Origin: Antedon mediterranea
Taxonomy: Eukaryota; Animalia; Echinodermata
Reading direction: 5' to 3'
Length of the DNA stretch: 64,000 nucleotides
NCBI RefSeq assembly: GCF_964355755.1
Contig: NC_092672.1
Coordinates: 2,294,001 to 2,358,000, forward strand
Of this stretch, positions 33,076 through 57,900 are shown in pieces. Every line of letters starts with the position of its first letter. Position 1 is the stretch's first letter. The translations under genes were made by a program, and so were the position numbers. The notes under the pieces were generated by a model. The model was not told the DNA's origin and ran no database searches. It saw nothing but the letters and a program-made list of their open reading frames with translations.

Positions 33076-35153
33076 GGATCCAGTCAAGTCGCCCCATCGC
33101 AAAGTCGCCCCATACAAAGTCGCCCAATACAAAGTCGCCCCATCGCAAAGTCGCCCCAAAACAAAGTCGCCCGGGCACAGTCGCCCCATCTCAAAGTCGC
33201 CCCATTACAAAGTCGCCCCATCGCAAATTCGCCCCATCGCAAAGTCGCCCAAACGCAAAGTCGCCCCATCGCAAAGTCGCCCACGGTTTTAATCATATCG
33301 GTTGCGTTTGATATCGATTGCGTTGTTACTTTGGTCGCGCTAAATGTCGTATACATTAATGTTTATCCTATTATATACATAATATGTGTTTTAATTTGTA
33401 TTTTACAGGTTTTAATGGAGTGATGTGCTTTTTAAAAATCATTAAAAAAATAGTCCCTTGTTTGAAAGTTCTAAAAAGATTATCCCTGATTTATAGTTTC
33501 GAAAATGTTAATTTAATATGATTTTAAAATTAGTTACCAGAGCCACAATTACAATTTCTTCAACCTACGCGATACCAGCTCATTTTTTAGGATAATATAA
33601 TAAATGTATAAATGTGTAGTAGGCCTTCGTATAGATTTACAGTAGTTAAAACAATAACAGTGTTGTAAGACAATAAGTGTTATAGGCTACTTATTGATCA
33701 TTTTGCATTTATTGACAAGTTATGTGTCTTAATTTTATAATGACTTTTCAAAATGAAGAAAAAAAAAGGGGATTTCATTGCCGATATGATTGTTTTACAT
33801 GCAGGTATTAGTAAAATTAAAACGCGACATTTTGACCATGGAAAAACCATCGTACAGTATCGTGTGCGTGTTTGTTAAAAAGGGGAATCCCCGACGGTCA
33901 GCAGAAAGACGTAGCAGCTGTGAGGAAACAGATACCAGAAGGCGCAGCTCCGATTGGATTCAGAGAATGTTTCAGATGGCGAGTGGCCTTTTATTCAACA
34001 GCACAATGATCATTTTACTGAAGAAATTCTTTTCAATCCTTTTGGTTATAGAACATTCTAATTATAATGCCTAATAAATATCCTCATATCGGGTGTTTAT
34101 TTAATTTTAAATTAAACAAGACAGTGAAGAGGCACGGAATAATACGTACACGGACGTACGACAAATACACACACGCACGTTATCATTTACGACATTATAG
34201 TGGTGATATGATGCAATTTTATAATGGATATAATGATGGTATTGCCTTTCCAGGAGTCTTACAATCAATGTTCACTGTAATACTATGTATATAATAGTAA
34301 ACTGAATGTTTATAAATAAATTGTTTTACGTAATTTGTTGCATATAAAATAAAAGATACAGACGTAGCCTATACGTTTCCTATAAAATATTTCACATTTA
34401 AATAATTATGTACTGTTAAATGACATTATGCTGGATAATACTATATCTCAAACTATGTTTACAAATTTTCATTTTTTAAGCCACACATCTTTCTCATCAT
34501 ACTGATCTGTAAAATAAAAACAAAAATCAATTATTAATATAGGCCTAAATAATAATAATAAATATTCATCGACCAAAGTAAAAATCGTATAACATCATTT
34601 TATCGCGACCGATTTCGAACGCGACTGATATCATGTGGTAATGATTGAAATGTGGTATTATTATTATCATCGTAAAACTCCGGCGGGGTTTCCCCATCTT
34701 CAGATGGTGCGTTGTAGAGTGCGACAACGGCAACGGCGGAGTAATTACGGGGGTTTCCCTCTGGTAAGCTAGCACGAGTGCGACCGCGGAGTGATTAGTC
34801 GGGGGCTTCCTCTCTGATGATATGGGGGTGCGTGCCGATCGTGTGACCTGAGACTACATGGCGGGGCTTCCCCTTTTATGCCTACACGTTCAGTGTTATT
34901 TTGTGTATCATTGCAACAACTTGTAAACTATTTTTTAACGTTTTGGGGCGAGTTTGCAATAGGGCGACTTTGTGATGGGGCGACTTTGCGATGGAGCGAC
35001 TTTGCGTTGGGGCGACTTTGCGATGGGGCGACTTTGCGATAGGGCGACTGTGTCGGGGCGACTTTGTTTTGGGGCGACTTTGCAATGGGGCGACTGTGTA
35101 AGGGGCGACTTTGTATGGGGCGACTTTGCGATGGGGCGACTTGACTAGCATCC
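33076..35153. mobile_element. Non-autonomous foldback-type Mutator (MULE)-like element, about 2.1 kb
   Basis: Termini GGATCCAGTCAAGTCG / CGACTTGACTAGCATCC. Long TIRs are built from 15-16-bp AAAGTCGCCCCATCGC units (33084-33282 and 34944-35144). 9-bp TSD TTTTATAGG / TTTTATAGC. No transposase. Confidence 0.85.
34685..34872 (+). promoter_or_regulatory. Cluster of four NF-kB-type sites
   Basis: GGGGTTTCCC at 34685 and 34750, GGGGGCTTCC at 34801, GGGGCTTCCC at 34863; all fit GGGRNNYYCC. A fifth, GGGGAATCCC, is at 33882. Confidence 0.5.
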
Positions 35154-35971
35154 TTTTATAGCACGTCATGACCGTCATTTAGGCTAGAATGGTCGATCCC
35201 CTAAGCACAATATCGTCACCACTGTTATGATCGTCCGATGATAGGCCTAATCGTAAAAAATATCAAAGCATTAATTTAGAAAACATAGTCGATGACGAAT
35301 CAAACGCGCAGGCAAAGTGAAGGTTGTGTGAGCTGTGATAGAGTGGAAGAAACGTCCATTGTTATTTATTTCTGTAGTTTTATGTGAATTTTTTGAACAA
35401 ACGAGAATAATTTCATGTACTATATTTTACTGTCTTTGACAATGATAAATAAAATGTCGTATTGTAATATATTGCACCACAACACAAATACTGTATGATC
35501 ATAAAAGTTAAATTTATTTAGTGATTAGACATCACGCCATGCCATAACAACCTTTGCCCCCCAAAACCTTGCTAATCAGCCCAACGCCCTATTTTATGAG
35601 ATATACAGTGAATAAATACCTCGTGATTCAAGACTTGAGTTATAAGATATAGCTCTATCTCTCTCCCAAGGTACACAGCCGTTGAGACGAATAGAAAACT
35701 CACAAGAAATTACGAACAGTAATGTTGACTCAATACTAGAGAGAACATCGATGCTTTAAGAGAGATCACCGTATATTCTGTAAGTATATATTATACTAGA
35801 GAAACAGCAATTCTACTAATTACAACATAAAACAATCCTAAAACAAAGTTACGGTAACTGTCCGATAGGATACAGGATTGTCCATGACAATTTGACGACA
35901 GCATTTATTGTAAATTTAACAATTTATATTTTTTTTTTATAGAAATGAAGATAAAAAACTGAATTGACAAC

Positions 35972-38900
35972 ATGGCAACACCAGGTAAAACAATAAATGG
36001 TCTTTTTTTTGTATTTTAAAATAAAATTTTATGACAAAAAAGATCGACATTTCGGAACCATCATAGAACCATTCTCAAGAACAAAATGAGTAAAATTAAC
36101 AAAGTACAAAGCACCAAAGGGTGACAAGAAATACTATAAACAATTAATAACTAATAATCCTAAAAAGATAAGCTCCTCCTCTCGTTAATAGTTAAATCTT
36201 TTGCTTTGATTGAGTAATTTTGTTTTGTGACGTCGATCTTTTTTGTCATTAAATTTTATTTTAAAGTTATATGTAAATGTCTCTTAAATTCATTTTTTTG
36301 TATTGCATCGAGAACAGTTTAACACAAAGAATATTTTCAGATGATCAGTTTTAGCACTCGTTATTTGTGATTATGATTTTCAATACAGTTTTTTTTTTAT
36401 TAATGTATTTATATTGTATTTTGTCATCATTTATTGTCATTATTTTGTCAGACAAAACTGAATGTGGTGAAGACCTTAAAGAAAGGTTCCATACTTTAAA
36501 AGATAAACTTAGCAAACACTTTGTGGGTCGCCATTTTAAGTGGTTGAGATTCTGCCTGCATGGATACATACCATTAGGAGACATTGACCGTGATAATGTT
36601 ACAGCAATGAGTTTATTTAATGAACTTTACCGAACCGGTAACATCACACCGCATAAAGTCAGGCTTTTGCTGGACATAGCTAATGTGACAGGTTTCAGTG
36701 AAGCAGTAGATCAGATAAACCAGTATATGGAAGATAACAATGTTGATGATGACTCGACGCTTTCAACGTCTCGTAAACAACTATTCCAGACCTTGAGAGA
36801 AATTGGACAAGATGAGTTGAAGAATGTTATTCATAATTACAATGAACTGAATAAATTTGAATTCACAGATATATGGGATGCCGTATTCATATTAGATAAA
36901 GGAAAGCTTCTAGGTACATCTTCACTAATTACCAGGTTTACCGATTGTTTTGGAAAATCTGCACAGGATCTAGGTATACGTATTTCATTTTCTTTAATTT
37001 GAAATACAAAGTATCGGTTACAAATAGTTGTAGTAGCCTATCCTCCTTATTTGTGACCCTTTTGGTATTCACAATCACTACAAACACAAATATTCAGTGC
37101 TTTGAATGCTGATTGTGTATGCATATTATTAGATTGAATATCGATATTAAATTCAATGTTTTCACTACGTAACAATTATTGTATATTTGTATTTTTTCTT
37201 GTTTGTTATTTAACAGAGGAAGTGCCGAAAAGTAGTAGTATTGACACAAGAATGCAAATAAAGGATTTACCGAGAAGTAGTAGTCGTGACACAAGGATGC
37301 AAACAGAGAAAGTACCGAGAAGTAGTAGGAGTGACACAAGAATGCAAACAGAGGAAGGTAACATAAGTTATACTGTTATGTAGGACATTAGAGTCAAAAT
37401 GATTGTATTGGTGAAATCAAACTAGAGAAATTAGTAATAGATTGCTAAATTAAATGAAATTAGTGATTTGAAATGTAATTATGGAAAGCCAAAAAAACCC
37501 AAAATAATTCAATTCACCAATGCATTTTTTAAACTCAAACCATAATCGTGCAGTTCAACAAAATCTCAATAACATCCGGTGACGTCCTAGGCAACAAAAG
37601 GTAAATTAAAAGTTAAGGAGGCCAGAGTACGCATACAATAACCCTTCTTCCATTCCTTATGCTATAATTATGTTTTATCATCAGTATTCTCTAAAGTTAA
37701 AACAATATGCATACCTGTAAGGAAATACAGGTATCTCACTGACTTAAGTGTGATATTGGTGAATACGGCCACTGGGCCTTATTTCATCCTATTTCGGATT
37801 TGTGATAAATTTATTTTTCGGTTTGCTGCCCTCTGTTGATTTTATTATTTTGCTTCCCTTCTGATTTATCAAAAAGTGTGTTTGTCGCCCTCTATCAACC
37901 AACCGTTACAAGATAAGGAGTGAGCCTCCGTATTATAGTCCGGTATAACTAATAATAATTACTTGACTTACTTTAACTGAGTACAGTAATAGCAAATTAT
38001 TATTACATTAGAATTCCCATACAAATATCTAGGCCTGCAAAAAGAACAAACAACTAATTAATAACATTTTTAAATGTTATTAAAACTGCTTTATATAAAA
38101 GATAAATTAAGATCAACAGTTTAATAATTTAAAAATACATGTATTATAAAATATTATTATGTATACATTTCTGAACCTCTTTTTTTACATTTAGAAAAGA
38201 TTGAAGAATATCTGCTGCTAACACAAAAGGAACACTGCAGGCAGGCCAGGATATTTACACCAGAAACAATGCGTGGTAGATACACAGTTGACATTTCACA
38301 GATGTTTACCGATATGGAACTACTGAAAGAACGTGAAAACAATAAAGGAAGCAAACCAACAACATTGGAAGAAGTGGTAGATGTTATACAATCCACACCT
38401 GGATGTAAAGCCCTCATAGAAGGGGAGGGAGGTATTGGAAAAACTACCATATTAAGGCATTTATCGTACAACTGGTCTGATCAATCAATTAAATTATTTG
38501 AAGGTAAAATTGTGTTTCTTTTAAGTTTAAGAGATTTAAAAAAAGATGACGACATATCTGATCTGATTGTACAGCAACTGACAGATTTCAATTTAGACAC
38601 AGATCTCCCAGAAGATCCACAGTTAATTAAGGAATTTATAAATAAACATAACAATAACTTTGTGTTACTACTAGATGGATTAGATGAATTAAGATTTGAT
38701 AATCAAAGCGTAATTAGTCTTTTCAGAAAAAAAAGGTTTAAACAAAGTACTGTAATACTTAATTCAAGACCGGAAAACATAGATGAATTTATAAAAGAGT
38801 GTAACGTACACATAAGAGTTAGTGGATTCAACAAAGAGAGCATCGGAAAGTATATTGAAAAATACTTTAAGCATTTTGAAAATCAACAATTGGGAGAATC

Positions 38901-40467
38901 CCTTAAAGAAGAGTTGGATATTGACACTTCTCGGGCTGGAAAAAAACATCCAGAAGCATATTCAATGTGCAAAAACCCAATGCTACTTCTTTCGATCTGT
39001 ATGCTATGGGAGGATAATCAAAATCTTCCTAGTGATAATACAGCTCTTTTCAAACAACTATTTTGTAGTATTTTAAATCAGTTTAACAAAATAGAAAATT
39101 GTCAAAAGATTACTAAATTTGAAAACATTCCAGCGGAATATGTAAATTCTATGATTTTGTTAGGAAAATGTATGTATGCTAACTTGAAAGTAAATAAACT
39201 TTCAATAACTAAACAAGATTTGACTGATAAACATTCGAACACAAATATAGCTGACCTAGCCCTAAAACTTGGATTTGTTTACGAAGAAGCACCACTTTCA
39301 AAATCTAATTGTGAAAGAATATTCATGCCTCCTCACAAATTGATTGTAGAATCATTGGTGGGATTTTACTTGTCTAAATTGTTTGAAAGTGAAAATATAA
39401 AGGATGACTCAGACTTGAGACAATTACTAATACCATTGGGTTATGATGAATTGGGGGTAATAAAAAAGGAGTATTTCAAAGTTGCTGGACAGTTTGCACT
39501 TGGTTTTCTTGATGCTGCAACTGTTGGTAAATATTTAAAGCAATGGCTCACAAAACATTTCCCATTAAGATTAAGAATGAGTAGAATTCGGAAGTTTTTT
39601 TTCGGCATTAAGATTACAGACAAGGAAAGATTTATTGCGAACATTTTAGACATTCAACCTGCACCTTATGCACCTTATGGTGTTAGGATTCAGAATCTAT
39701 CAGGTGACGTCATCAATCACTTGGGTACAGAATGTTCTCTCAAACAAGTTCAATTAGCATTAAGTCATCTCTATATCTCTAGTAATAACCTTCACAACCT
39801 TGATGTTAATTCATTGTCTTCATTACTCATTATGTGTCCTAAGCTGTGGAAGCTTGACATGATTGATTGCAATCTATCAGGTGAAGTAATTAATTACTTT
39901 CTTACAGAATGTTCTCTCAAACAAGTTCAATTAGCATCTCTCGATATCTCTTTTAATAACCTTCACAACATTGATGTTAATTCATTGTCTTCATTTCTCA
40001 TTATGTGTCCTAAGCTGGAGTACCTTGACATGAGGGATTGCAATCTATCAGGTGACGTCATCAATCACTTGGGTACAGAATGTTTTCTCAAACAAGTTCA
40101 ATTAGCATTACGTCATCTCAATATCTCTGGTAATAACCTTCACAACCTTCATGTTAATTCAATGTCTTCATTACTCATTATGTGTCCTAAGCTGACGTGG
40201 CTTGACATGAGTGATTGCAATCTATCAGCTGACGTCATCAATCACTTGGGTACAGAATGTTCTCTCAAACAAGTTCAATTAGCATTACCTGGTCTCAGTA
40301 TCTCTTATAATAACCTTCACAACATTGATGTTAATTCATTGTCTTCATTACTCATTATGTGTCCTAAGCTGAGGTGGCTTGACATGATGGATTGCAATCT
40401 ATCAGGTGAAGTAATCAATTACTTGACCGAAGAGTGTTCAAACAGAGGCATCACGTTTTTAAAATAA
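35972..40467 (+). CDS. NLR-1: tandem DED-like + Ser-rich linker + NACHT + LRR (about 982 aa)
   Basis: Exons 35972-35984 (MATP), 36452-36973, 37217-37357 and 38195-40467; all introns phase 1, GT-AG. Walker A GEGGIGKT, Walker B LLLDGLDE, CKNPMLL, PHKLIVE; four 57-59-aa paired-LRR modules. Candidate upstream UTR exon ends at 35779 (GTAAGT). Confidence 0.9.
36452..36973 (+). CDS. NLR-1 effector exon: two death-effector-domain-like units
   Basis: Pattern LRFCLHGYIP..IDRDNVTAMSLFNELYRTGNIT..VRLLLDIA, then SRKQLFQTLREIGQDELKNVI..IWDAVFILDK, fits the DED helical spacing. Assigned by eye. Confidence 0.65.
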
Positions 40468-43453
40468 TTTTACAATCCTATTATACTGTATACAATTTAT
40501 ATATAAATATATATAATCATCACCTTTATAAACTCGCAGAACGTAAGTGTCAATTTGGAAATTCCCGTTAGAATTGCGTCTGTAATCTAAAAATGTCATG
40601 CAATCTATATTAAATTTTTAAACAAATCCGGAATAGATTATTTCCAAATTTATAATTTTGTCTTTTTAAGGAATAATTTCAAAGCAACATTTTATTTTCT
40701 CAAAAGTGTGTTCCTCTCCTCCCCCCCTGCGTCGAATACGCGTACTTCATCCATATTCATCATCTTCTTCCTAGACGCGCGCGTACAATCAAAGAGAGCT
40801 AGCTAGCTCTCTCTGCATATCTCTGCATGCTACATACGTGTGTACAGGATATTATACGTATAAATACTATATAAGTTAGGCAACAATTGTTGCTAAGTGA
40901 TATTATTTTTATTTAATTATAACATGATACTGTATGGTAGGAATTGACAATTTATATTCTGTGTGTTTGTATTGGTATAATTCAGTTTTTATTTTCTACA
41001 CAGCTCAAATGAATTATTTACCGATATTCTTCTTGAGATAATATTTGATTTGTGGTGAATGTGCAATGTATAAAGTCAGCATAACTGCACTGCCAGTCAT
41101 TCATATGTTTTAGTGATGTTGGTTTTACTTAGTTTAACATTTTATCCAGTAGATTTATTTGTTCTGAAGGGTCTTAAGACTACAGACAATTACTTGTCTC
41201 TGTAAAATCCATGTAATGTATGTATTTATATTGCTGAATGAATGCGAATGAACTTGTAGTAGATTTATTTGATAATCTATTTTTAATTTGTCCATGTTTA
41301 GGGAAAAATACATGTTTAATAACCCTTGTGGTATATGGTATTGGCAATTTGATATAATTCATGTCTGATAATAGACGAACATTTTGTACATTTCTTGTTT
41401 GTACAATTCATTTGAATTTGGGCAATTTGTACGATGTATGTATATAATTATATATTTTGATAATGTAATTAATTAATGTAATTATTGTTGATAATATAAA
41501 TATAGACGCTAAGTACTAAATGTGCCAAACTGTGCATGGCAAATTTCATATTGCGTTAACTTTTACTTGATGATGACAAATAAAAGTAATGTTAGTTACG
41601 TTGTGTATCTTTTCTTAGCTTTTGTGTGATGTCTACCGTATTGAAAATAATTCATGTGATTATAAGCAGATCCAAGGACACATGATCTACCCTCGACACG
41701 CTTTTTACCGTCTAAACACGCCTTAAAATGGTCGCAATGAAGTCAATCTAAAACAAAACAGCAATTAGGCTCTGCTCCCATATACATGATACATTCTGGA
41801 TCTGGACCTTTGTGATACAGTGTGTATGCCTACAGTATCTGCGCCTGGTGATATCAGTATAGCTATAGGCCTACAGTATTTATCTGCGGCCTGGTGACAG
41901 TATTTATCACAAATGGGTGCAGGGCCGGCCTAAAAATGGTAAAATGAAGTGCTGAGCTTAACATGATGTCCTAGGCCCTCCCCGCCTCCTACGCCTGATT
42001 TCAATGAATCTAATTAAAGAAATCATTGTCGTATTAACATTACTCTATCACAAATCAAATACGGTCGGTACATATTTTCACAAAACATTATTTTTATTGA
42101 TGTTATATCACGATGCAACATTTGATGACGGGAAATAATTGATGTTTCATATTGAGAGCAAATCGATTTTATAAATGAATAGCTCATTATTACTGTACTG
42201 TTACTGAGATTACCATAAAGAGGCCAACAGCAAAACAATATACATAATTATTAAAGCATTTTGTTTACCCATAGAATTTGAATATTACAAGAATAAAACA
42301 TGATGATTATAATTAAATAATGAATACGATAGTTATGAAGACAAATTTACATGGTGCTATGTTGAAGTTACTGAGCGATGATCAATGACGTATATTTTGT
42401 ACAGCAATGATGATGCAATGGTACTAGATACATTTGATAACAGTGTAAGTTTTATAAACAAATAAAAGGAAAAAATGCAAAAATATATACATTATTATTA
42501 TGTTTGTATTTACAAATTAATAAACAAAAGTATAAACTTATTAAACCTTAAGCCTCCTAAACCAGCAGCTGTGCTATAAATAATTACAAAGGCTGTTTGC
42601 TCATGGAGGTATCAACAAAGCAATACCACCTTCATAATACCATGTTGTAATATAATGTTTACCAAAAAGTGCTAAATATAATATTAGAAAACTCTAAAAG
42701 ATTCAAAATCTATCCACCACCTAATCAAACTGGAAGTTAAAAAAGAAATTTTATTTTTTAATAATTGCACAAATAAAGGAATGCGTTGCACTGAATGTTT
42801 CTTAATGAATAAATTGTATGTAACGCAATAAGTTATCGAACTAAGGCCAATGTGAATAGTGAAGCGTAACGGTGCTTCCTGAACGTTTAGGTTCGAATCT
42901 CCAGTTGCTGTTTTGATTGCTTAACAGTTGCATTTGTTAATGCATCAACCTATAAAGAAAATTTTCTTTAAAACCCAAGAACAGCAATACATACCATTTT
43001 CCGATATTCTTCAGATAATAATATATGATTTGTGGTGAATGTGCAATGTATAAAGTCAGCATAACTGCAATGCCATAGTCATTCATATGTTTTAGTGATA
43101 TTGGTTTTACTTAGTTTAACATTTTATCCAGTAGATTTATTTGTTCTGAAGGGTCTTACGACTACAGACAATTACTTGTCTCTGTAAAATCCCTGTAATG
43201 TAAGTATTTATATTGCTGAATGAATGCGAATGAACTTGTAGTAGATTTATTTGATAATCTATTTTAAATTTGTCCATGTTTTTGAAAAAATACATGTTTA
43301 ATAACCCAGGTGGTATGACAATGGTAATTTGGTATAATTCATGTCTGATAATAGACGAACATTTTTTTATATTTCTTGTTTGTACAATTCATTTGAATGT
43401 GGGAAACAGCAATACATACCAATCTCAAAATATGATGGCCAAAAAGAAAGGCA

Positions 43454-43503
<50 letters not shown>

Positions 43504-45650
43504 TAATAACAATAATAATAATAATATTAATAATAATAATAAGCTTTATTTAATCACGGATACTTAACTCAACTGAAAGTTGTTTTTCAGTAAGACCGTG
43601 TTTAAAGGAAAACACAAAAAAAAAGTAAATGTAAAAAGACCTTAATTACTATCAAAACAGGTAATAAAACAATTACAATGAAATAAAATGAAACAAGGAT
43701 ACACTTACTAACTATAAAATTAAATAATACACTACATTTAAATAAAGCTACATGAAATTAGCAGTTAACAGTTTCTTAAAAAGAGAGACAGAGTTCACAT
43801 TTTTAATATCTTCATGTAATATGGAAGTTCAATGAAGATTAGTTCAAAAATGAATTGATATATCTTCGTTTACCTTTTTTTAAAAATCTGTTTCATTTTT
43901 AATTTACAAAAAAAGGTATTATATGCATTCACATATGAATGGTTCAGTAGAATTTGTTTAAATCCTGTTCATTATTATTTGCGTACATTGCAGTGCGAAC
44001 CAACATTTTAACTGGATTAAGAAATGTGCAAGAGTGTCATCTACTACTGTAACTGAATGATATTGCAGATGTCAAGACATTATAGTATTATGTTCAAATG
44101 ATTCCGTGTATTTTTCTGTGTAATAATTACTGTACTGTTAAATCAAGAATTCCGTATAGTGTTTCATAAGGAAGTGCTAAACAAGATGTTATAATCACAC
44201 GTGATATGAATACTGTTGACCTAATGGAGGGGTGCAGAAGCGCAGCTGCTACGAAATCGTCAACGATTAACTATATCCAGTTTTAAACCAATAATAAATA
44301 CAAAATATGTATGTAGACATTTTATTTAATATAAACATCAATCCGGTATCTGAAATTAAGTAATTTCAAAAAATGCATGTATAGCTGGCTTCTGGCTAAT
44401 ACTTTTATATCAATTTAAAAAAAATGTGGGTTGGCAATTTTGTTCCTGTTCATCGAGGAATAGGTATGTAGGCCGCCGCCTAAACATAAAACGGAAAAGA
44501 GCCAGCATTATCTATGCAAAAATAAAACACAATACTACTAATATTACTCTTTCCAAATGTCAGTAATGCCTTTCATCATTTAACTTCGGCTAACAACAAT
44601 TTTAATTTTCTGCATACTTTTTTTTCTCTTCTGACTTATTGTTGTCAACATAAGTTTATATTATAAGTAAATAAAATAATTTTTCAATGAAATTCATCAA
44701 TGATTTAAGATACTAAATTTGCAGGGTGAAAATGTAAGCGTACTGTGCCTAAATCAAATGAAAGTTCCCAAATTTACCAAACCCACATATCGGCGTGCAC
44801 AGACTGGGAATTAGGCTTACAAGTATAAGTGATTACACATCACGCCCTCATCGTAAATGTTAAATTTACACGTCACATACAGTGTTGCTATTCAGTGCAT
44901 TGCCATATTGACCATACATTTGCCTCATTTACGATTTGAAAATCTGCTCATGATTTTTTGAATGATTGAACACGTCAACTTTGACAATATTTAACGTTCG
45001 TTTCCAGAAGAATGCGCTTGGAGCAAAATTACATCCGAATACTACGGTGACTGATTTCCATCAAAAAAAATGTATAGTAATACGGCGTTATAACGCCTTA
45101 AATACGGCGTTATAACGCCCTAAATATGGCGTTATAACACCCTAAATACGGCGTTATAACGCCCTAATACGGCGTTATAACGCCCTAAATACGGCGTTAT
45201 AACGCCCTAAATATACAATCTGTTCACACGTACATGCGCATGCGTAGTACATCAACAAACCTCTCGGCGCATTCACAGATTTTAGAAAGTCACATGGTAC
45301 ATTACTGGCCATCTTTGTGTCCAACTATGCCTATGTAGTGTATGGAGTCAAGTTATGTGCTTAAAAAATGTATAACATTCACAAGGTTTTAAATATCTAA
45401 TTTAATATCAAAACAATCAATTTGTTTAAAGGTTTTTGTTAAGATAACGCAATCATAAATTTACTGCGAAGATGATTAAACAACAAAATGTAAAAACAAT
45501 GCATTACAATAGAGAATCGCTGTACAAAATAAACGCGAACGCGTAGAGAGAGTGTATGGAGCGCACAGCCAGAGCTGTTAAATTAAATGGATTAAAGTTA
45601 TTTTTTGTTTAAAATCATCAAAATAATATTATTATTTTAACAAACCTTTA
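37160..45650 (+). repeat. Segmental duplication copy 1 (pairs with 50780-60879)
   Basis: Collinear near-identity from TCACTACGTAACAATTATTG through the linker exon, NACHT-LRR exon and 3' flank to AACAAACCTTTA. Confidence 0.93.
43455..43541. repeat. (AAT)n microsatellite
   Basis: Long AAT run; shorter counterpart at 58801-58840. Confidence 0.95.
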
Positions 45651-45813
45651 AACAAATTGATTCAATCCATTCAAAGTCGCAACTCTTTATGGCTCTGGGT
45701 TTGTTGATGTACTACGCATGCGCATGTACGTGTGAACGGATTGTATAATTAGGGCGTTATAACGCCGTATTATTATAAAATAATTTTTTCTTTGGTGGAA
45801 ATCAGCCACGGTA
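45043..45813. mobile_element. Foldback-like non-autonomous DNA transposon with 6-bp TSD (duplicate copy from about 60333, interrupted at 60879)
   Basis: Termini TACGGTGACTGATTTCCA / TGGAAATCAGCCACGGTA flanked by GAATAC on both sides. Inner inverted repeat 45216-45260 / 45698-45743. Tandem 22-bp AAATACGGCGTTATAACGCCCT units. Confidence 0.75.
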
Positions 45814-48739
45814 GAATACCCACCTAATTCAAAAAATACAATGATTATTTTTGGTGATCTTTTTCCAGAGCCTCTGAGCACTTTAAAGTTTGGATACAGA
45901 TGATGTAAGAGTTGATGGACGTATCTAAAAACTGAATTGTATCTAATCCACACCTTAATTATATAAACAATGGATCTGATTGATCAAATTTTAGCACTTG
46001 ATTATTTTTGTTAACTAGTATAATATTTCAATAGTAAAATTTGATTATTTAAGATGACACCTACATCATTTAATTTTTATGATTTTTTAAAAGCATTATT
46101 CTTTTAAAATACAACTCAATTACAGTGAATTTTACAGAGCAACGAACGAACGTTAACCTTAAAAATGCCCTGATCTCGGTAAATGGCCACTAACATTTTA
46201 CAGAGCAACGTGAACGTTAACCTTAAAAATGCCCTGATCTCGGTATATGGCGACTAAATTTTTTTACAAATGTTTTCCTCTTGGCTGGATAACTTAGCAT
46301 AGGCTTAAAGTTTTATGTATTATATAGGCCTATAGGTTTCCTTCCACACCTACTTTGTTTTTATTAATTGTTATCGTACGTGTTTATATAATTATTATTT
46401 TATGTATTTTTAATATAATGTGTGGAGAATATTTACTGAATATTTATTGAATATTGAATAAACGAATTGAATTGAATGTGTAGGTTCAAGTCTCAATTAA
46501 ATTGGGTTGACCTAAAAAATACACACACAAATATATACACTATATACACTATATACACTATATACACTCAATGAGATGATAGGATATCATAGCAAACAAA
46601 TGCAGAATGGAATAATTACAGATTTCGAAAATTATCAAAGAATTCTTAAATTATTATCATCCTAAGCAGAAGCCCTTTCCACGCATCAATGAAGATTAGT
46701 TTTTCAATTCAATTCACATGTATTTAGTCATTATTATTATTATTATTATTATTAAATAAATATTATTATTTTTAATTACAATTTCAGTAGCCTATATAAT
46801 TGATGGCAAGGGTCCTTCATAAAGAAGTTAACAATTCTGTTTTTGCAGGACACTTTTACATAAAAAGACCAAACAGGGTAATCTTCACATAATAGTAGGC
46901 CTACATTTAATATAAACGCGAAGCGGACGAACAATAGTCAATAGATTCAAATAAATATTACCTTGAATTCGTGCGTAATAGAATACCAAGTTCGGTATAA
47001 CAACTTCCAACAAATACTTATATCGCTAAGTCAATTGTCTTCCTGTTTATGAAATATATGGTGTTTTGGAATTGTATTGTTTTCAATTAACTATGTACCA
47101 GAAAATTATTACTAGAAAAATTGTTTATAGGCCTACCTTTTGTAGATAAGAAATTACACTTAGCCGAAAGTGAACAAGAGATCAAGGTTCAATAACATTT
47201 TCTGTGTAATAGACCTAATTCTAACATGTATGATAGTGAAGCGTAATGGTGCTTTCTCAACGTTTAAGTTCGAATCTCTGCAGTTGCTGTTTGATGGCCT
47301 GAACAATTGCATTTTTTAATGAGTCAAACTAAAGTGAAACGTTCTTTAAAACCAAAGAAACAATAATACATTATTACCAAAAGGTTAGTCTAGGTTCTAG
47401 ACTGAACTTATTAAAAAAATAAATATTTTGGTATATATGGCGTTTCATACGTAAAATACATAGGCTTGTATTTTCAGACAAAAATAAGGCAAGAGACAAA
47501 CATAAAAAAGACAATAAATACAGACTTGGGACAAGTCTACCAAAACGTACTTATCTCATTATACGATGGCCAAAAAGAAGGGCAGAATGGAATTAATTAC
47601 AGAATTTCAATGAAGATTAGTTCGTTTGATTCAAAGTAGCCTACAGGTCATTAAATATTACGAAAATCAAACAAGTATAGAATCCGACAACAGCAATGTT
47701 AACTTGGAATCATGCCAAGCCGTACATCAAATTACTCCGCTTCCCTAATACTTCTTAGTTTCATTTCATGAAAGGTTTTTAAATTGTTTTAAGATTGTAT
47801 GTTTCTCTTTCTTTAATTAATAATGTTGCCAGCAATAGCCAAAAATGTAATACAAGCATTGAAACATATTAATGATTCAATAGAATTTGTTTAAATATTA
47901 TTACATCTCTAAGTTGGATCACGACCACATTGACGTGCAGTTCCACGGACTTGTTTGAGAAATTCAACGTAGAATAGTAGAATTATTCATTTACTACTAC
48001 ATTATACTGATATATAGAAATGATAACAATTAGTTCAAAGGATTCTGTATATTAGTTCTAAGAATAATTTCTGTGAAATTTTTATGGAATATGATAGACT
48101 TCCGTGATCGTGTAGACATTGTGCAATAAGGAAGTGCGAGACGGTCATGTTATAAGCACAGATGAATAATGTTGATCTCAAACGGGAGTGGTGCAGTAGC
48201 TGCTGCGACATCGTCAACAATTCCCGACATTAAATATACAATCCAGTTTTAAGCCAATAATTATGTAAGTAGACATTTTTTTAATAATATAAACATCAAT
48301 CCGGCGACAGCAATCCCAAAACTATTTATTGTAGCGGGCCTCTGACTAGCTATTTAATTTTAAGAAACTGAGTGTGATATGGCCTGTTCCTCAGTTCCCC
48401 GTACTTGTATGCAATGACATGTAATCATAAGAAAGAGCCAGAATTGTCACTCTAGGCCTACTAAAACAAGACACTAAATAATTAATGTTTCAAATTATAT
48501 AGTAATGAATTTCATGATTAAAGTTTAGCTAACAATGAATTTTCGGGTTTCTTTCTCTTTTGCTACTTAATTACATTCTTGTTAACATAAGTTTACAATC
48601 AAAAATTAAATAATAAAATTATTAAATGAAATTCATCACGAGCTGAGATAATACATTAGCTGGGTGTATAAATGTAGAGGTCTAAATCAAATGAGAATTC
48701 CCATTTTTACAAACAACATATCGAAATAAAATTCTCATC

Positions 48740-49559
48740 GGCCCTGTTTCTGCTGCCAACTAAATACCGTATATTATACGGTATTTTTTGAATACCGTAT
48801 ATATACGGTATATTTTTGGCAGCAGAAACTGCGCTCATAAAAAATATACCGTATTTTGTATACCGTATTTTCCCCACAAAATTTGTGGATAAAATACGGT
48901 ATTTACAAATTTATACCGTATTTTTTGTACCCGTTTCTGCTGCCAATAAAAAATACCGTATTTTTTTTTACATGACAAAAGGTCACCATTCGTGTTTTTA
49001 TTTTCTGTCGCTGTTAGCTGCTTTACACACATGTATAGATATATTCGGCGAAAATGTGGAGCGAATACGTCACAGTTTTACTAAATATATGTGTGTGGGG
49101 AAGCTAAAATGTCTGACCAACTAAAAGGTAATAAAAGGGACAACCACATTTATAAAGACATTTCTAAAAAAATAAAGCAGGAGTATGGAATAAACTTGTC
49201 TCCAAAGCAAGTAAACTCAAAGCTGAAGAGCCTGCGAAAGCAGTACAACATTGCAAAATACAATAACTCGGGGAGGGAACGAATTAATTGTCCCCATTAC
49301 GATGTTTTCTGTGCTCTCAACATCTCTATCACTAGGGCTAGGCTGTTGAAAGTGAGACGTAAAACTTCCTTTATTGCGACTTTTAATTATCGATCAAATA
49401 AATGAATGGCAATTTGGGTAAAAAAGATGAAATTTAACACGACCACCCAAGAAGTATTGTTAGCAGAAACGGGGTACTAAAAAATAAGGTATAAAAAATA
49501 CCGTATTTTATACCGTATTTTTATACCGTATTTTGAGCAGTTGCAGCAGAAACAGGCCC
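48740..49559. mobile_element. Non-autonomous PIF/Harbinger-like element with a Myb/SANT-like ORF remnant
   Basis: TIR GGCCCTGTTTCTGCTGCCAAC / GTTGCAGCAGAAACAGGCCC; many subterminal ATACCGTAT repeats; no TSD seen. Confidence 0.75.
49109..49405 (+). pseudogene. Myb/SANT-like (trihelix) DNA-binding domain fragment of a Harbinger-type accessory ORF
   Basis: LKGNKRDNHIYKDISKKIKQEYGINLSPKQVNSKLKSLRKQYNIAKYNNSGRERINCPHYD fits the Myb_DNA-bind_4 pattern (QC..K.K.L...Y...SG..R..C..Y); the first helix is missing. Confidence 0.7.
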
Positions 49560-49790
49560 ACTGTGACAGTCTTAACACCGAGGTATAAAAATAGATGGTG
49601 CAAAGAAACAATATCTAACACTACACTACACTATTTTTTTTTAATACTGTAATATGAGTGGATATATTGACGGCACTCGTGACACAGTCTTAGTTACTAC
49701 CTAAAAGTCGGTAGGAATATTTTAAGTCAAAAGTCTCACCATAAGTGGCACGTTTTATAATCAATTCGTTTTCATCAGACAATCCACATA

Positions 49791-52700
49791 ATGGTAGTTG
49801 CTTATGGTATCACTGTAGGCCTAAGGTTCAACATTTAGCTCCGCAAAAGATAGTCAATGCATAGAGTCATTATGTTCACAAACAGTACTAAAACTTCAAA
49901 TAAACATCATCGGATCAAACACATCTCCGTAATGACACTTTACATCGTATGCCCCTTTATCAATAATACCCAGAGAGGGTTATAGAGTTTGGTATCAGAA
50001 TCATGTAATTTGATGTTCTGTAAAAGTTTTTCTCGATCCATAATCCCGATATCATACGGTTACTATGATGATTGTGCATCAATGTCAAAAACATGAAATA
50101 TTTTTATAAAAAAACTGTATTTATGTAGTGATAGACATTAGGCCATTCATCTTGAATGTTACATTATTCAGCATATCGTTGTTTTTTTAGAAATAGATTT
50201 TAATGTGGACTTAGTGAACTTTTCAGAATGGTATGATAAAAACAACCTCGTAAGACAGCTAAAGGTTTTATACCACGATTTAATTTCAGTAGCAGACATA
50301 GACAAAGCCAACACAACGATAGATCTACTGGATGCATTGAGAAAAACAGGACGTTTAAGCCGAGGCAATCTGGAGTTACTTTATGAAACGATAAAAATAA
50401 CACAAACGTTTGGAGCTATCAAAGTTTTTCAACAATCTTTCTTCGAAGTTCAAGAAATACAAATTATTAATTTCACCCCATATCGACACTGGATTGCAGA
50501 TTTTGGAAACGAACTACGAAAGGCTGCTGTTAAGAAAATTGATGCACTCTTCAACAATCCTTTAAAAAATTATGAAGACTCGTGGAGTATGATTATAGAC
50601 TTGGAACAAAGACAAATACTTTGTGAAGAAAGAAAAGAAGGGTTTATTAACATTCTTAACAGAATTGGACTGGCATCAACGATGAAATGCCTGGCACAAG
50701 GTATGTAACAGGAACGTGTTAGCAAACAAATAATTAATTGGAGAAGATTATAAAAATAGCCTATAATATGTGTAAAACATTCACTACGTAACAATTATTG
50801 TATATTTGTATTTTTTCTTGTTTGTTATTTAACAGAGGAAGTGCCGAGAAGTAGTAGTAGTGACACAAGAATGCAAACAGAGGAAGGTAACTATAGTTAT
50901 AATGTTATGTAGGACATTAGAGTCAAAATTATTTTATTGGTGAAATCAAACTAGAGAAATTAGTAATAGATTGATAAATTAAATGAAATAAAATTAGTGA
51001 TTTGAAATGTAATTATGGAAAGCGAAATAAACCCAAAATAATTCAATTTACCAATTCATTTTTTAAACTCAAACCATAATGTTGTACAGTTCAACCAAAT
51101 CTCAATTCACTTTTAACATCCGGTGACGTCCTAGGCAACAAAAGGTAAATTAAATGTTAAGGAGGCAAACTACGCATACAATAACCCTTCTTCTATTCCT
51201 TATGTTATAATAATGTTTTATCATCAGTATTCTTTAGAGTTAAAATAATATGCATACCTGTAAGGAAATACAGGTATCTCACTTATGTGATTGGTGAATA
51301 CGGCCACTGGGGCTTATTTCATCCTATTTCGGATTTGTGATAAATTTATTTTTCGGTTTGCTGCCCTCTGTTGGTCATGTTTTTAAAAATTATGCTTCTC
51401 TTCTTATCTGATTTATCCGTGGATTTATCAAAATTTGTGTTTGTCAACCTAAATTTACAAATACGTTACGGTACAAGATAAGGAGTGAGCCTCCGTATAT
51501 CAGAAAATAGTCTGGTATAACTAATAATAATTACTTGACTTACTTTAACTGAGTACAGTAATAGCAAATTATTATTACATTCGAATTCCAAACAATTATC
51601 TAGGCCTGCAAAAAGAACAAACAACTAATTAATAACATTTTTAAAACTGCTTTATATAAAAGATAAATTAAGATCAACAGTTTAATAATTTAAAAATACA
51701 TGTATTATAAAATATTATTATGTATACATTTCTGAACCTCTTTTTTTACATTTAGAAAAGATTGAAGAATATCTGCTGCTAACACAAAAGGAAAACTGCA
51801 GGCAGGCCAGGATATTTACACCAGAAACAATGCGTGGTAGATACACAGTTGACATTTCACAGATGTTTACCGATATGGAACTACTGAAAGAACGTGAAAA
51901 CAATAAAGGAAGCAAACCAACAACATTGGAAGAAGTGGTAGATGTTATACAATCCACACCTGGATGTAAAGCCCTCATAGAAGGGGAGGGAGGTATTGGA
52001 AAAACTACCATATTAAGGCATTTATCGTACAACTGGTCTGATCAATCAATTAAATTATTTGAAGGTAAAATTGTGTTTCTTTTAAGTTTAAGAGATTTAA
52101 AAAAAGATGACGACATATCTGATCTGATTGTACAGCAACTGACAGATTTCAATTTAGACACAGATCTCCCAGAAGATCCACAGTTAATTAAGGCATTTAT
52201 AAATAAACATGACAATAGCGTTGTGTTACTACTAGATGGATTAGATGAATTAAGATTTGATAATCAAAGCGTAATTAGTCTTTTCAGAAAAAAAAGGTTT
52301 AAACAAAGTACTGTAATACTTACTTCAAGACCGGAAAACATAGATGAATTTATAAAAGAGTGTGACGTACACATAAGAGTTAGTGGATTCAACAAAGAGA
52401 GCATTGGAAAGTATATTGAAAAATACTTTAAGCATTTTGAAAATCAACAATTGGGAGAATCCCTTAAAGAAGAGTTGGATATTGACACTTTTTGGCCTGG
52501 GGAAAAACATCCAGAAGCATATTCAATGTGCAAAAATCCAATGCTACTTCTTTCGATCTGTATGCTATGGGAAGATAATCAAAGTCTTCCTAGTGATAAT
52601 ACTGATCTTTTCAAAGAATTATTTCGTAGTATTTTAAATCAATTTAACAAACAAAAACAATGTGACAAAATTTTAAAATTTGAAGACACCCCATCAAAAT

Positions 52701-53851
52701 ATGTACACGCTATGATTTTGTTAGGCAAATGTATGTATATAAACTTAAAACGAAATCAACTTTCAATAAAAATAACAGATTTGATTGATACACATTCCAC
52801 AAGAGATATGATTGACATGGCCCTAAAACTTGGATTTGTTTACGAAGAAGCACCACTTTCAAAATCTAATTGTGAAAGAATATTTATGCCTCCTCACAAA
52901 TTGATTGTAGAATCATTGGTGGGATTTTACATGTCTAAATTATTGGAAAGTGAAAATATAAAAGATGACTCAGACGTGAGACAATTACTTATACCATTGG
53001 GTTATAATGAATTGGATGTAATAAAAAGCGAGTATTTCAAAGTTGCGAGAAAGTTTGCACTTGGTTTCCTTGATGCTGCAACAGCTGGTTATTATTTAAA
53101 GCAATGGCTCACAAAACATTTCCCATTAAGAATGAGTAGTAGAATTCGGAAGTTTTTTTTCGGCATTAAGATTACATACAAGGAAAGATTTATTGCGAAC
53201 ATTTTAGACATTGAACCTGACCCTTATGGACGTGTTAGTGTTAGGATTCAGAATGTATCAGGTGATGTATTTAATAACTTTCTTACAGAATGTTCTCTCA
53301 AACAAGTTCAATTAGCATTACGTTATCTCTTTATCTCTGGTAATAACTTTCACAACATTGATGTTAATTCATTGCCTTCATTACTCATTATGTGTCCTAA
53401 GCTGTGGTGGCTTGAAATGAGGGATTGCAATCTATCAGGTGACGTCATCAATTACCTGGGTACAGAATGTTCTCTCAAACAAGTTCAATTAGCATTAGAT
53501 ATTCTCGATATCTCTAATAATAACCTTCACAACATTGATGGTAATTCATTGTCTTCATTTCTCATTATGTGTCCTAAGCTGAGGCACCTTGTCATGATTA
53601 ATTGCAATCTATCAGGTGACGTCATCAATCACTTGGTTACAGAATGTTCTCTCAAACAAGTTCAATTACCATTACGTACTCTCCGTATCTCTCATAATAA
53701 CCTTCACAGCATTAATGTTAATTCAATGTCTTCATTACTCATTATGTGTCCTAAGCTGTGGGTGCTTGACATGAGTGATTGCAATCTATCAGATGAAGTA
53801 ATCAATTACTTGACCGAAGAACACTATTCAAACAGAGCCATCCAATTTTAA
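49791..53851 (+). CDS. NLR-2: different tandem DED-like exon + short linker + NACHT + LRR (about 890 aa)
   Basis: Exons 50191-50700, 50836-50886 and 51756-53851 are phase 1, GT-AG. The start exon 49791-49806 (MVVAY, donor GTATCA) is tentative. Same NACHT motifs as NLR-1; three 59-aa LRR modules. Confidence 0.87.
50191..50700 (+). CDS. NLR-2 effector exon: two DED-like units
   Basis: QLKVLYHDLIS..IDKANTTIDLLDALRKTGRLSRGNLELLYETI, then YRHWIADFGNELRKAAVKKI..DSWSMIIDLEQRQIL. Acceptor TTTTTTTAG at 50190, donor GTATGT at 50701. Confidence 0.65.
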
Positions 53852-55767
53852 AACTAATTTTACAATTCTATTATACTGTATTCAATTTATATATAATTAT
53901 ATATAAACATTACCATTATAAAACTCGCAGAACGTAAGTGTCATTTTGGAAATTCCCGTTATAATTGCGTCTGTAGTCTAAAAATGTCATGCAATCTATA
54001 ATAGAACTTCAACCAAATCCGGAATAGACTATTCCCAAATTTATAATTTTGTTTTTTTAATCTCAAAGCAACATTTTATTTTCTCAAAAAAAGTGTATTC
54101 CTCTCCTCCCCCTTGCGTCGAATACGCGTACTTCATCCATATTCATCATCTTCTTCCTAGAAGCGCGCGTACAATCAAAGAGAGCTAGCTAGCTCTCTGC
54201 ATCCCATCTGCATGCTACATACGCGTGTACAGGATATTATACGTATAAATACTGTATAAGTTAGGCAACAATTGTTGCTAAGTGATATTATTTTTATTTA
54301 ATTACAACATGATACTGTATGGTAGGAATTGACAATTTATATTCTGTGTGTTTATATTGGTATAATTCATTTTTTCTTTATTTTGTATTTTCTTTACATT
54401 TTCTTCGCAAATACAGCTCAAATGACCAGTTCTTTTCAGATATCTTTGAGATAATATTTGATTTGTGGTGAATGTGCAATGTATAACGTCAGCATAACTA
54501 CAATGCAATAGTCATTCATATGTTTTAGTGATATTGTTTTTACTTTAGTTTAACATGTTATGTAGTAGATTTATTTGTTCTAAAGGGTCTTACGACTACA
54601 GACAATTACTTGTCTCTGTGAAATCTCTGTAATGTAAGTATTTATATTGCTGAATGAATGTGAATGAACTTGTAGTAGATTTATTTGATAATCTATTTTA
54701 AATTTGTCCATGTTTTTGGAAAAATACATGTTTAATAACCCAGGTGGTATGACAATGGTAATTTGGTATAATTCATGTCTGATAATAGACGAAAATTTTT
54801 TTTATATTTCTTGTTTGTACAATTCATTTGAATTTGGGAAATTTGTATGATGTATGAATAAAATTATATATTTTGATAATGTAAATAATTAATGTAATTA
54901 TTGTTGATAATATAAATATAGACTCTAAGTACTAAATGTGCCAAACTGTGCATGGCAAGTTTCATATTGCGTTAACTTTTACTTGATGATGACAAATAAA
55001 AGTAATAATGTTAGTTACGTTTGTTTATCTTTTCTTAGCTTTTGTGTGATGTCTACCGTATTGAAAATAATTCATGTGATTATAAGCAGATCCAAGGACA
55101 CATGATCTACCCTCGACACGCTTTTTACCGTCTAAACACGCCTTAAAATGGTCGCAATGAAGTCAATCTAAAACAAAACAGCAATTAGGCTCTGCTCCCA
55201 TATACATGATACATTCTGGATCTGGACCTTTGTGATACAGTGTGTAGGCCTATAGTATCTGCGCCTGGTGATATCAGTATAGCTATAGGCCTACAGTATC
55301 TATCTGCGGCCTGGTGATACAGTATTTATCACAAATGGGTGCAGGGCCGGCCTAAAAATGGTAAAATGAAATGCTGAGCTTAATATGATGTCCTAGGCCC
55401 TCCCCGCCTCCCACGCCTGATTTCAATGAATCTATTAAAGAAATCATTGTCGTATTAACATTACTCTATCACAAATCAAATACGGTCGGTACATATTTTC
55501 ACAAAACATTATTTTTATTGATGTTATATCACGATGCAACATTTGATGACGGGAAATAATTGATGTTTCATATTGAGAGCAAATCGATTTTATAAATGAA
55601 TATAGCTCATTATTACTGTACTGTTACTGAGATTACCATAAAGAGGCCAACAGCAAAACAATATACATAATTATTAAAGCTAGCTACCTTCATTTTGTTT
55701 ACCCATAGAATTTGAATATTACAAGAATAAAACATGATGATTATAATTAAATAATGAATACGATAGT

Positions 55768-57145
55768 TATGAAGACAAATGTACATGGTGCTATGTTGAA
55801 GTTACTGAGCGATGATCAATGACGTATGAAGACAAATGTACATGGTGCTATGTTGAAGTTACTGCTGAGCGATGATCAATGACGTATAAAGACAAATGTA
55901 CATGGTGCTATGTTGAAGTTACTGAGCGATGATCAATGACGTATGAAGACAAATGTACATGGTGCTATGTTAAAGTTACTGAGCGATGATCAATGACGTA
56001 TGAAGACAAATGTACATGGTGCTATGTTGAAGTTACTGAGCGATGATCAATGACGTATGAAGACAAATGTACATGGTGCTATGTTGAAGTTACTGAGCGA
56101 TGATCAATGACGTATGAAGACAAATGTAAATGGTGCTATGTTGAAGTTACTGAGCGATGATCAACGACGTATAAAGACAAATGTACATGGTGCTATGTTG
56201 AAGTTACTGAGCGATGATCAATGACGTATGAAGACAAATGTACATGGTGCTATGTTGAAGTTACTGAGCGATGATCAATGACGTATGAAGACAAATGTAC
56301 ATGGTGCTATGTTGAAGTTACTGAGCGATGATCAACGACGTATGAAGACAAATGTACATGGTGCTATGTTAAAGTTACTGAGCGATGATCAATGACGTAT
56401 GAAGACAAATGTACATGGTGCTATGTTGAAGTTAGTGAGCGATGATCAATGACGTATGGAAACAAATGTACATGGTGCTATGTTGAAGTTACTGAGCGAT
56501 GATCAATGACGTATGAAGACAAATGTACATGGTGCTATGTTGAAGTTACTGAGCGATGATCAATGACGTATGAAGACAAATGTACATGGTGCTATGTTAA
56601 AATTACTGAGCGATGATCAACGACGTATGAAGACAAATGTACATGGTGCTATGTTGAAGTTACTGAGCGATGATCAATGACGTATGAAGACAAATTAATG
56701 TACATGGTGCTATGTTAAAGTTACTGAGCGATGATCAATGACGTATAAAGACAAATGTACATGGTGCTATGTTGAAGTTACTGAGCGATGATCGATGACG
56801 TATAAAGACAAATGTACATGGTGCTATGTTGAAGTTACTGAGCGATGATCGATGACGTATAAAGACAAATGTACATGGTGCTATGTTGAAGTTACTGAGC
56901 GATGATCAATGACGTATGAAGACAAATGTACATGGTGCTATGTTGAAGTTACTGCTGAGCGATGATCAATGACGTATAAAGACAAATGTACATGGTGCTA
57001 TGTTGAAGTTACTGAGCGATGATCAACGACGTATAAAGACAAATTTACATGGTGCTATGTTGAAGTTACTGAGCGATGATCAATGACGTATAAAGACAAA
57101 TTTACATGGTGCTATGTTAAAGTTACTGAGCGATGATCAATGACG
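55768..57145. repeat. 57-bp tandem satellite, 24 units
   Basis: Unit TATGAAGACAAATGTACATGGTGCTATGTTGAAGTTACTGAGCGATGATCAATGACG. 1378 bp minus three small insertions (10 bp) = 24 x 57. No spacers. Confidence 0.95.
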
Positions 57146-57563
57146 TATAGTTTGTACAGCAATGATGATGCATGATACTAGATACATTTGATGATGATAA
57201 CAGTGTAAGGAAAATGCAAAAATATAAAACACTATCCTGTTTGCATTTACAAATTAATAAATTAAAGTGTAAACTTATTAAACCTTACGCCTCCTAAACC
57301 AGCACAGCTGTGTTATAAATAAGTACAAAGGCTGTTTGCTCATGCAGGTATCAACAAAGCAGTACCACCTATGTATTTTCATGTGTTTACCACAAAGTGC
57401 TAATTATAATATTAGAAAAACTCTAAAAGACTCAACATCTATCCACCACCTAATCAAACTGGAAGTTAAAAAAGAAATGTTATTTAATAATTGCACAAAT
57501 AAAGGAATGCGTTGCACTGAATGTTTCTTAATGAATAAATTGTATGTAACGCAATAAGTTATC

Positions 57564-57900
57564 CGAGTGCTTGCCATGAATGATTGCAATCTATCAGGTG
57601 ATATATAATCTATCATGCGCGCAAAGACTGTTCAAAGAGAAATGATTTTACAATCCTACTAATAGTGCATGTATATATAATTCTATATAAACAGCACATT
57701 TTTAAAAACTCGCAGCACGTAAGTGTAAATTTGAAAATTCTCGTTAGAATTGCATCTATAATCTATAAACTGCATGCTTTAAATAATAGATATTCAAACA
57801 AATCGGGTAGACCTACAGTATAATAGTAATATAATCAATATCATAATTTTTTAAGCAAAATTTTACTTTCTCAACAGTTTATTCCTACCTATAGCCTACA
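57564..57900 (+). pseudogene. Orphan remnant of a third NLR: last LRR plus 3' flank
   Basis: GTGCTTGCCATGAATGATTGCAATCTATCAGGTGA...TGTTCAAAGAGA...TTTTACAATCCTA...AAACTCGCAGCACGTAAGTGT aligns with 40375-40590 and 53762-53980; frameshifted. Confidence 0.75.

Follow-up and report, generated by a model that had tools for sequence, protein, structure and literature searches.

A probable recent head-exon swap at a five-base intron overlap in one of two neighbouring tandem-DED/NACHT/LRR genes of a crinoid

The NLR genes of sponges, sea urchins, amphioxus and Nematostella carry shuffled death-fold heads, and the joining of a death effector domain (DED) to a NACHT domain is reported from amphioxus, sea urchin and Nematostella, as far as the accessible parts of these papers go (PMC3879445, PMC2858798, PMC2575513). 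Such shuffling has been widely inferred from trees, and the mode by which a head moves has rarely been seen. Here we describe a window of 64,000 nt of Antedon mediterranea DNA (all coordinates below are window positions) that holds two adjacent genes, A and B, which by their sequence are crinoid immune-sensor genes of tandem-DED/NACHT/leucine-rich repeat (LRR) architecture. Gene B is probably a recent chimera, in which the head exon of another family member has been joined to a copied A-type body at a 5-bp overlap within an intron. That NLR heads are shuffled was already known from trees; what is new here is a junction at base level. The open-access literature yielded no study of crinoid NLRs and no base-level junction of an NLR head, a search on which supplements may bear.

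The two genes share a long duplicated segment on the forward strand. Self-comparison places the first copy, comprising body and 3′ flank, at 37161-45650 and the second at 50780-60879, 5.1 kb of other DNA separating the two (45651-50779: donor-type upstream DNA, head B and the first part of the head B intron, in which no Met-Ala-Thr start exon was found). An initial annotation of this DNA had noticed that homology begins abruptly within an intron (37160 versus 50780), and the edge proved to be exact, at 37161 = 50780. To its right, 37161-37228 and 50780-50847 are 100% identical over 68 bases, and blocks of 90-94% follow until 45650 = 60879. To its left, where the upstream regions had been described as impossible to align by eye, the best local score between 35300-37160 and 45700-50779 was 36, which is near shuffle level (mean 30.4 and maximum 34 in 20 shuffles), so that there is no usable DNA homology on that side. 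The description of the bodies as near-identical holds in patches and fails elsewhere: divergence is 0-4% over 37961-38960, and the NACHT exons have 14 differing sites within their first 800 nt, in agreement with the few differences first noted there, but the remaining coding exon diverges by 8-15% and most of the linker-NACHT intron by 6-10%, falling back to 0-2% in places along the 3′ flank. In 60-residue windows after the linker gene B is 60-100% like gene A, and one window is nearer to the relative P0043 than to A; the two bodies are a patchwork. Copy 2 also holds a 57-bp tandem array at 55768-57149, expanded from about one unit in copy 1, and a 1-kb piece exclusive to it carries the 3′ end remnant of a third NLR (57567-57812, 72% like A and B).

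Contigs aligned over 50620-50990 show what lies at this edge (results from 24 of 43 contig pieces). Three intron forms are present in data set X1, namely those of gene A, gene B and a donor type. Record 6 of X1 spans the gene B junction from 50727 to 50809 with 0 differences, one contig enters at 50780 preceded by the upstream letters of gene A, and two contigs track the intron of B to 50784 and then diverge into other sequence, a continuation that has 0 matches in the window at 3 mismatches. Records 3, 6, 7 and 8 of X1, with loose contig ends at 50780 and 50784, define this edge. Form A reads left-A, TTCAC, right-AB; the donor form reads left-B, TTCAC and another right side; form B reads left-B, TTCAC, right-AB. 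The overlap occupies 37161-37165 on the gene A side, where self-comparison and contigs both place the start of the duplicated segment, and 50780-50784 at the chimeric junction, with donor-type intron to the left and gene A intron to the right, 80 nt after the head B donor site. These 5 bp are all that the two parental forms share at the join, their flanks being unlike, and an overlap of at least 5 bp at a random join in DNA of this composition has a chance of about 0.013. Joins mediated by microhomology, through end joining or template switching, have a short overlap common to both parents and lack longer homology. Where the initial annotation had proposed a recent intronic recombination, the intronic breakpoint and its recency stand, but homologous recombination does not fit here, the parental forms sharing 5 bp.

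X1 is likely to come from another individual, because many of its full-depth sites do not match the window and because the 823-bp insertion at 48740-49562 is missing from it. In X5, which derives from organism B, bin depths of 233.2, 190.4 and 150.3 are accounted for exactly by contigs ending at 50784 or starting at 50780; no contig there crosses the B junction, yet donor-type and body contigs are present, and the donor-type continuation occurs in a related form. Contig depths served only to count which contigs cover which bases, and a hint from their sums that X1 has more copies of the B junction than of the A junction was set aside, depth being no copy number. Contigs also leave the head B intron at 50730, 50748, 50756, 50764 and 50765, and each of these exits might mark another breakpoint, an insertion or simple divergence. 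The inserted segment has its left edge in a palindromic repeat, complete in copy 1 (45027-45829) and cut at 60879 in copy 2 (60318-60879); the stretch near 45650-45830 is a candidate second junction.

Protein searches found 40 proteins with the body of gene A, all of them crinoid (26 from Antedon mediterranea and 14 from Anneissia japonica; members are given P numbers here). Trees were built from the 21 genes with full head and NACHT, leaving out P0012, P0017, P0044 and P0045 (isoforms) and P0001 (identical to B), with P0046 in the head tree only. Separate trees of heads and NACHTs, which the initial annotation had proposed as a check, conflict with each other: the head tree puts A with P0046 and P0047 (support 99/97) and B with P0041, P0043 and P0003 (100/100), and the NACHT tree puts A with B and P0041 (100/100). 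Congruence was rejected in all three approximately unbiased (AU) tests, in which A, B and P0041 were held together in the head tree (p 2e-10), or A and P0047 (p 4e-5) or the head clade of B without A (p 2e-6) were held together in the NACHT tree, the last two groups having been chosen after the head tree was known. Pairwise identities for head and NACHT are 21% and 91% between A and B, 95% and 74% between B and P0043, 94% and 76% between B and P0003, and 78% and 57% between A and P0047. Other pairs in the family give 98% and 74% (P0003-P0043), 90% and 70% (P0007-P0022) and 20% and 83% (P0013-P0026). On a tree of 44 NACHTs with 30 head-labelled rows, explaining the four head types takes 6 changes where 3 would be the minimum, a count made without a shuffled control; the A-type label of P0002 was assigned from an accession consecutive with that of P0046, on the same contig. 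Heads and linkers also assort: an A head with an AB linker occurs in gene A, a B head with an AB linker in gene B and P0041, a B head with a D linker in P0043, P0003 and P0009, and an A head with a D linker in P0046. All four pairings are thus present, and together with the head-type changes they bear out, across the family, the combinatorial repertoire of heads and sensors that had been suggested. Four further members (P0011, P0014, P0008 and P0020) bear a weak TIR-like head label, which rests on a Pfam match in P0014 (1 of 4, E 0.024) and on mutual similarity in the rest, and P0037 has an OTU domain between head and NACHT.

Head A (36452-36973, 522 nt) and head B (50191-50700, 510 nt) are each a single open, AG/GT-bounded exon of phase 1-1. 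They had been called unrelated but are remote homologues, with 33 of 158 aligned residues identical (21%), a local score of 72 against a maximum of 54 in 1000 shuffles, and a profile-profile match of 93% probability and E 4e-7 over 150 columns. Because head A aligns colinearly with head B, the two are, to judge by their sequences, old subtypes of one module. Much closer relatives lie elsewhere: head A is 76-78% identical to the heads of P0046 and P0047, on other chromosomes, and head B is 94-95% identical to those of P0003 and P0043/P0017. Pfam DED scores are 19.5 and 33.9 bits respectively, for the first DED only, and fall short of the gathering score of 35.9 (E 0.0011 for head A). The structural model of head B (predicted local distance difference test, pLDDT, 90.4) matches the caspase-8 tandem DED over its full length, with a TM score of 0.81 to 4zbw, and its structure search gave 15 matches with E no higher than 0.001, of which all that were listed are caspase-8/cFLIP DEDs; the model thus presents head B as two DED bundles in the caspase-8 arrangement. 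Three A. mediterranea proteins on three chromosomes (P0048, P0049 and P0050) combine a tandem DED and an AB-like linker with a hydrophobic segment and a fibrinogen C-terminal domain. Their heads are 63-64% identical to head B, and their sequences predict type II membrane receptors whose DED pair would face the cytoplasm.

The remaining exons complete two similar reading frames. The start exon of gene A has its coding part at 35972-35984 (MATP and a phase-1 donor) and is the sole forward-strand ATG-GCN-ACN with a phase-1 GT donor, matching paralogues that begin Met-Ala-Thr; it is followed by head A, by a linker exon with three imperfect repeats (37217-37357, 141 nt) and by the NACHT-LRR exon (38195-40467). 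Spliced by coordinates with this start exon, gene A encodes an open protein of 982 residues. In gene B, head B is followed by a linker exon with one repeat (50836-50886, 51 nt), which is present in the A. mediterranea RefSeq model P0001, and by a NACHT-LRR exon (51756-53851) that is 100% identical to P0001; the spliced product is an open frame of 884 residues without a start, and P0001 is identical to it from residue 133 to the end. Both NACHT-LRR exons are open with intact Walker A and B motifs (GEGGIGKT and LLLDGLDE). The NACHTs score 77.5 and 82.7 bits to PF05729 (cut-off 26.7) and the C-terminal repeats 34.9 and 27 bits to LRR_1 (cut-off 20.6), so that Pfam places a NACHT-LRR region, and not a caspase or pseudocaspase domain, C-terminal to both heads. 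The protein searches that recovered its relatives did not return a model for gene A, and the protein collection did not yield a single-exon product from the first Met of its NACHT exon. The LRRs form 59-residue units at 39730-40431 and 53288-53818, whose exposed positions vary only by amino-acid-changing codons. Codon differences at the 10 exposed positions comprise 105 that are non-synonymous and 0 that are synonymous; the other 49 show 112 and 18. These counts cover all pairs among 6 related units and hence are not independent; the pattern suggests diversifying selection.

Data sets X8 (from organism B) and X9 were taken as RNA-like from their exon-edge joints and empty intergenic bins. In X8 a GT..AG joint links a head-B-type end (50700) to the AB linker (50836) with a short side of 28 letters, head-A ends are spliced to two linker variants, including the gene A linker, and linker ends are spliced to the NACHT exon. 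Both splice chains put forward in the initial annotation thus have support in contigs of one RNA-like run, and the symmetrical 1-1 phase that it gave to effector and linker exons agrees with the frames, the splice sites and the spliced models. X9, in which the head-B-type exon is covered and the AB linker uncovered, was not used as evidence.

Gene B is most likely a chimera because three intron forms meet at TTCAC, because the head and NACHT trees conflict, and because the pairwise identities of its head and body point in different directions. A donor head exon would have been joined to a copy of an A-type body within the head-linker intron at TTCAC, probably by microhomology-mediated template switching or end joining. 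We take B to be the product form because one join yields B, whereas deriving gene A and the donor type from B would need two breaks at the same five bases. Later exchange among paralogues would have made the bodies a patchwork, and gene A likely received its own head from the P0047 clade in an earlier swap. The boundaries between head, linker and NACHT exons are all in phase 1, so that intronic joins would stay in frame and the family would for this reason accumulate pairings of heads and bodies. Several observations weigh against this account, in addition to those on the start exon and the ancestry of head B given below. Record 6 of X1 has 53 letters to the left of the join and 30 to the right, where our bridging rule needs 31. 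The donor is known only from contig matches of 47-90 nt, and its assignment to P0003/P0043/P0009 is tentative. The bodies are up to 15% apart in parts, so that the template was not simply gene A in its present form. X8 joins a head-B-type end to the AB linker, though the DNA of X5, under the same organism label, lacks the B junction; this mismatch could reflect an older or second swap, polymorphism, or read-through splicing between tandem genes. Finally, the model of head A is poor (pLDDT 53 from four sequences) and has no match at E 0.001 or better, its top matches being caspase-8/cFLIP/vFLIP at E 0.15 or worse, and its second DED alone matches that of head B with E 0.058. The proposal of tandem-DED heads is supported for head B, through its fold, and more weakly for head A, through homology to B.

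It is quite possible, if short of an even chance, that the swap, though real, is a by-product, with gene B a 5′-truncated copy from an unstable tandem array that yields at most a Met133 product and no new signalling output. Gene A and the paralogues with B-type heads have their Met-Ala-Thr start in a separate exon, and no ATG-GCN-ACN exon with a phase-1 donor was found in 40467-50190, between the stop of A and head B. Neither RefSeq model has a start exon, P0001 starting at the internal Met133 and P0041 running into the intron, and the flanks carry repeats, a gene-end remnant and a polymorphic insertion. Gene B may thus have lost its start exon, and its only product may be a mostly headless protein because no such exon was found. 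By the same token the new promoter first attributed to gene B is not supported, and the start exons said to be unalignable may number one, that of gene A. Against truncation, however, the head, linker and body frames are all open, X8 contains the splice from head B to linker, P0041 is another copy in which this head and linker occur together, and gene B may begin with a different type of start exon or have a long first intron. The read-through N terminus of P0041 has six residues in common with the gene A intron at about 36295, which hints weakly that heads are exchanged behind a start exon and intron that remain in place. The spacer at 45651-50779 is colinear with older copies of itself at 57897-60086 (62-69%); over 45837-48724, compared with 57897-60086 and 42832-44792, identity is 62-78%. 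These copies conserve a GGAAGTG motif and a donor-like site near 48264, whose sequence is possibly that of a non-coding first exon from an earlier duplication round.

A second alternative, which we consider unlikely, is that gene B keeps the ancestral link between head and body, the break at 37161 marking the arrival of head A and the resemblance of head B to P0003 and P0043 arising by later conversion of the head exon. The B-type head may be ancestral for the AB body, because the NACHT tree places the AB clade amid genes with B-type heads and because in the fibrinogen proteins, too, B-type heads are followed by an AB-like linker. The native heads of the P0047 clade are of A type, gene A starts Met-Ala-Thr as B-type genes do where P0047 starts MASAK, and X8 from organism B has a B-type head on an AB linker. 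This history nevertheless requires two events ending at the same five bases. It also sits poorly with the donor-type continuation in X1 and its related form in X5, with X5 lacking the B junction, and with the splicing of A-type heads to two linker variants in X8, which makes that pairing old enough for diversification.

It is very improbable that A and B are old tandem paralogues whose heads never moved and whose bodies were homogenised by gene conversion. The patchy body identity (0-15% differences) would suit such a history, and differential conversion between domains is described for zebrafish NLRs in the accessible part of one report (PMC4852459). Conversion, however, depends on homology, of which the left edge has 5 bp; both heads are far more closely related to heads on other bodies than to one another; and the AU tests reject congruence. 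The bodies are probably subject to conversion, but the junction cannot be its work. An assembly error merging two paralogues, which the multi-copy region, the X1 contig one letter short of the bridging rule and support without long reads might suggest, is hardly credible given the exact junction at high word depth in X1, likely another individual, and a second model, P0041, with the same pairing of head, linker and body.

For the chimera we favour, the predicted working is that the variable LRRs would sense, the NACHT would oligomerise, and the tandem DEDs would nucleate a DED assembly with a caspase-8/cFLIP/FADD-like partner; signalling of this kind would follow from what is known of DEDs and from the model of head B. 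Heads that are 21% identical are likely, on prediction, to prefer different partners. More speculatively, and we think it doubtful, the locus may belong to an ongoing crinoid cassette system in which NLRs and membrane fibrinogen receptors trade one phase 1-1 tandem-DED exon at a hot spot within the first 30-85 nt of the next intron, at a pace that lets junctions differ between individuals. Start-less heads like B would then be read by long-range splicing from the start exon of a neighbour, and pairing would be set at both DNA and RNA level, rerouting one sensor to different death-fold partners.

Other elements lie near the two genes. The insertion at 48740-49562 (no strand assigned) is high-copy, with inverted ends, a Myb/SANT fragment (PF13837, E 1e-12) and very high depth in X1, and is absent at this site in X1 and X5; it is likely a recently active non-autonomous element, which we take to be Harbinger-like. 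Upstream of gene A, an inverted pair of short tandem-repeat blocks (33082-33282 and 34946-35146) is 90% alike. The reverse strand carries an FHA-domain exon of a neighbouring coiled-coil gene (26825-27436) and a reverse-transcriptase open reading frame (1437-2729).

The locus offers a junction together with its product and both parental forms, the signature of a short overlap, and a pair of near-identical sensors that differ in their heads. Two old questions thereby become testable, namely the repair route by which immune exons are shuffled and whether signalling is rewired when a head is exchanged, although the locus is worth less for this if gene B has no start exon. The tandem DEDs of caspase-8 and cFLIP resemble the modelled head B over its full length, but at about 20% identity, and here the DED pair is fused to NACHT-LRR or to a membrane fibrinogen protein, without a caspase domain. 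In another kingdom, fungal NLRs reportedly assort heads, NACHTs and repeats, with other head domains. Zebrafish NLR-B30.2 genes likewise combine N-terminal repeat exons with varied NACHT groups and show domain-dependent conversion, but they have Fisna and B30.2 domains, and the accessible part of that report describes no DED pair and no breakpoint (PMC4852459). In the lancelet, phase 1-1 domain exons also move, even between haplotypes, although that study, in the main text as accessible, deals in genome-wide statistics and has 0 occurrences of 'microhomology' (PMC4284660). Domain grafting in lophotrochozoan RLRs, a different receptor family, similarly leaves sibling paralogues that differ by a gained N-terminal exon, according to the portion of the report available (PMC8998645). 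The invertebrate NLRs, in the accessible parts of the papers cited at the outset, share with the crinoid genes a death-fold head, NACHT and LRR, a head type independent of the NACHT tree and, in some sponge clades, NACHT and LRR on one exon. Shuffling there is inferred from trees and domain types, whereas the crinoid swap, probably recent, lies between two subtypes of one domain class and is seen at five-base resolution with both parental forms.

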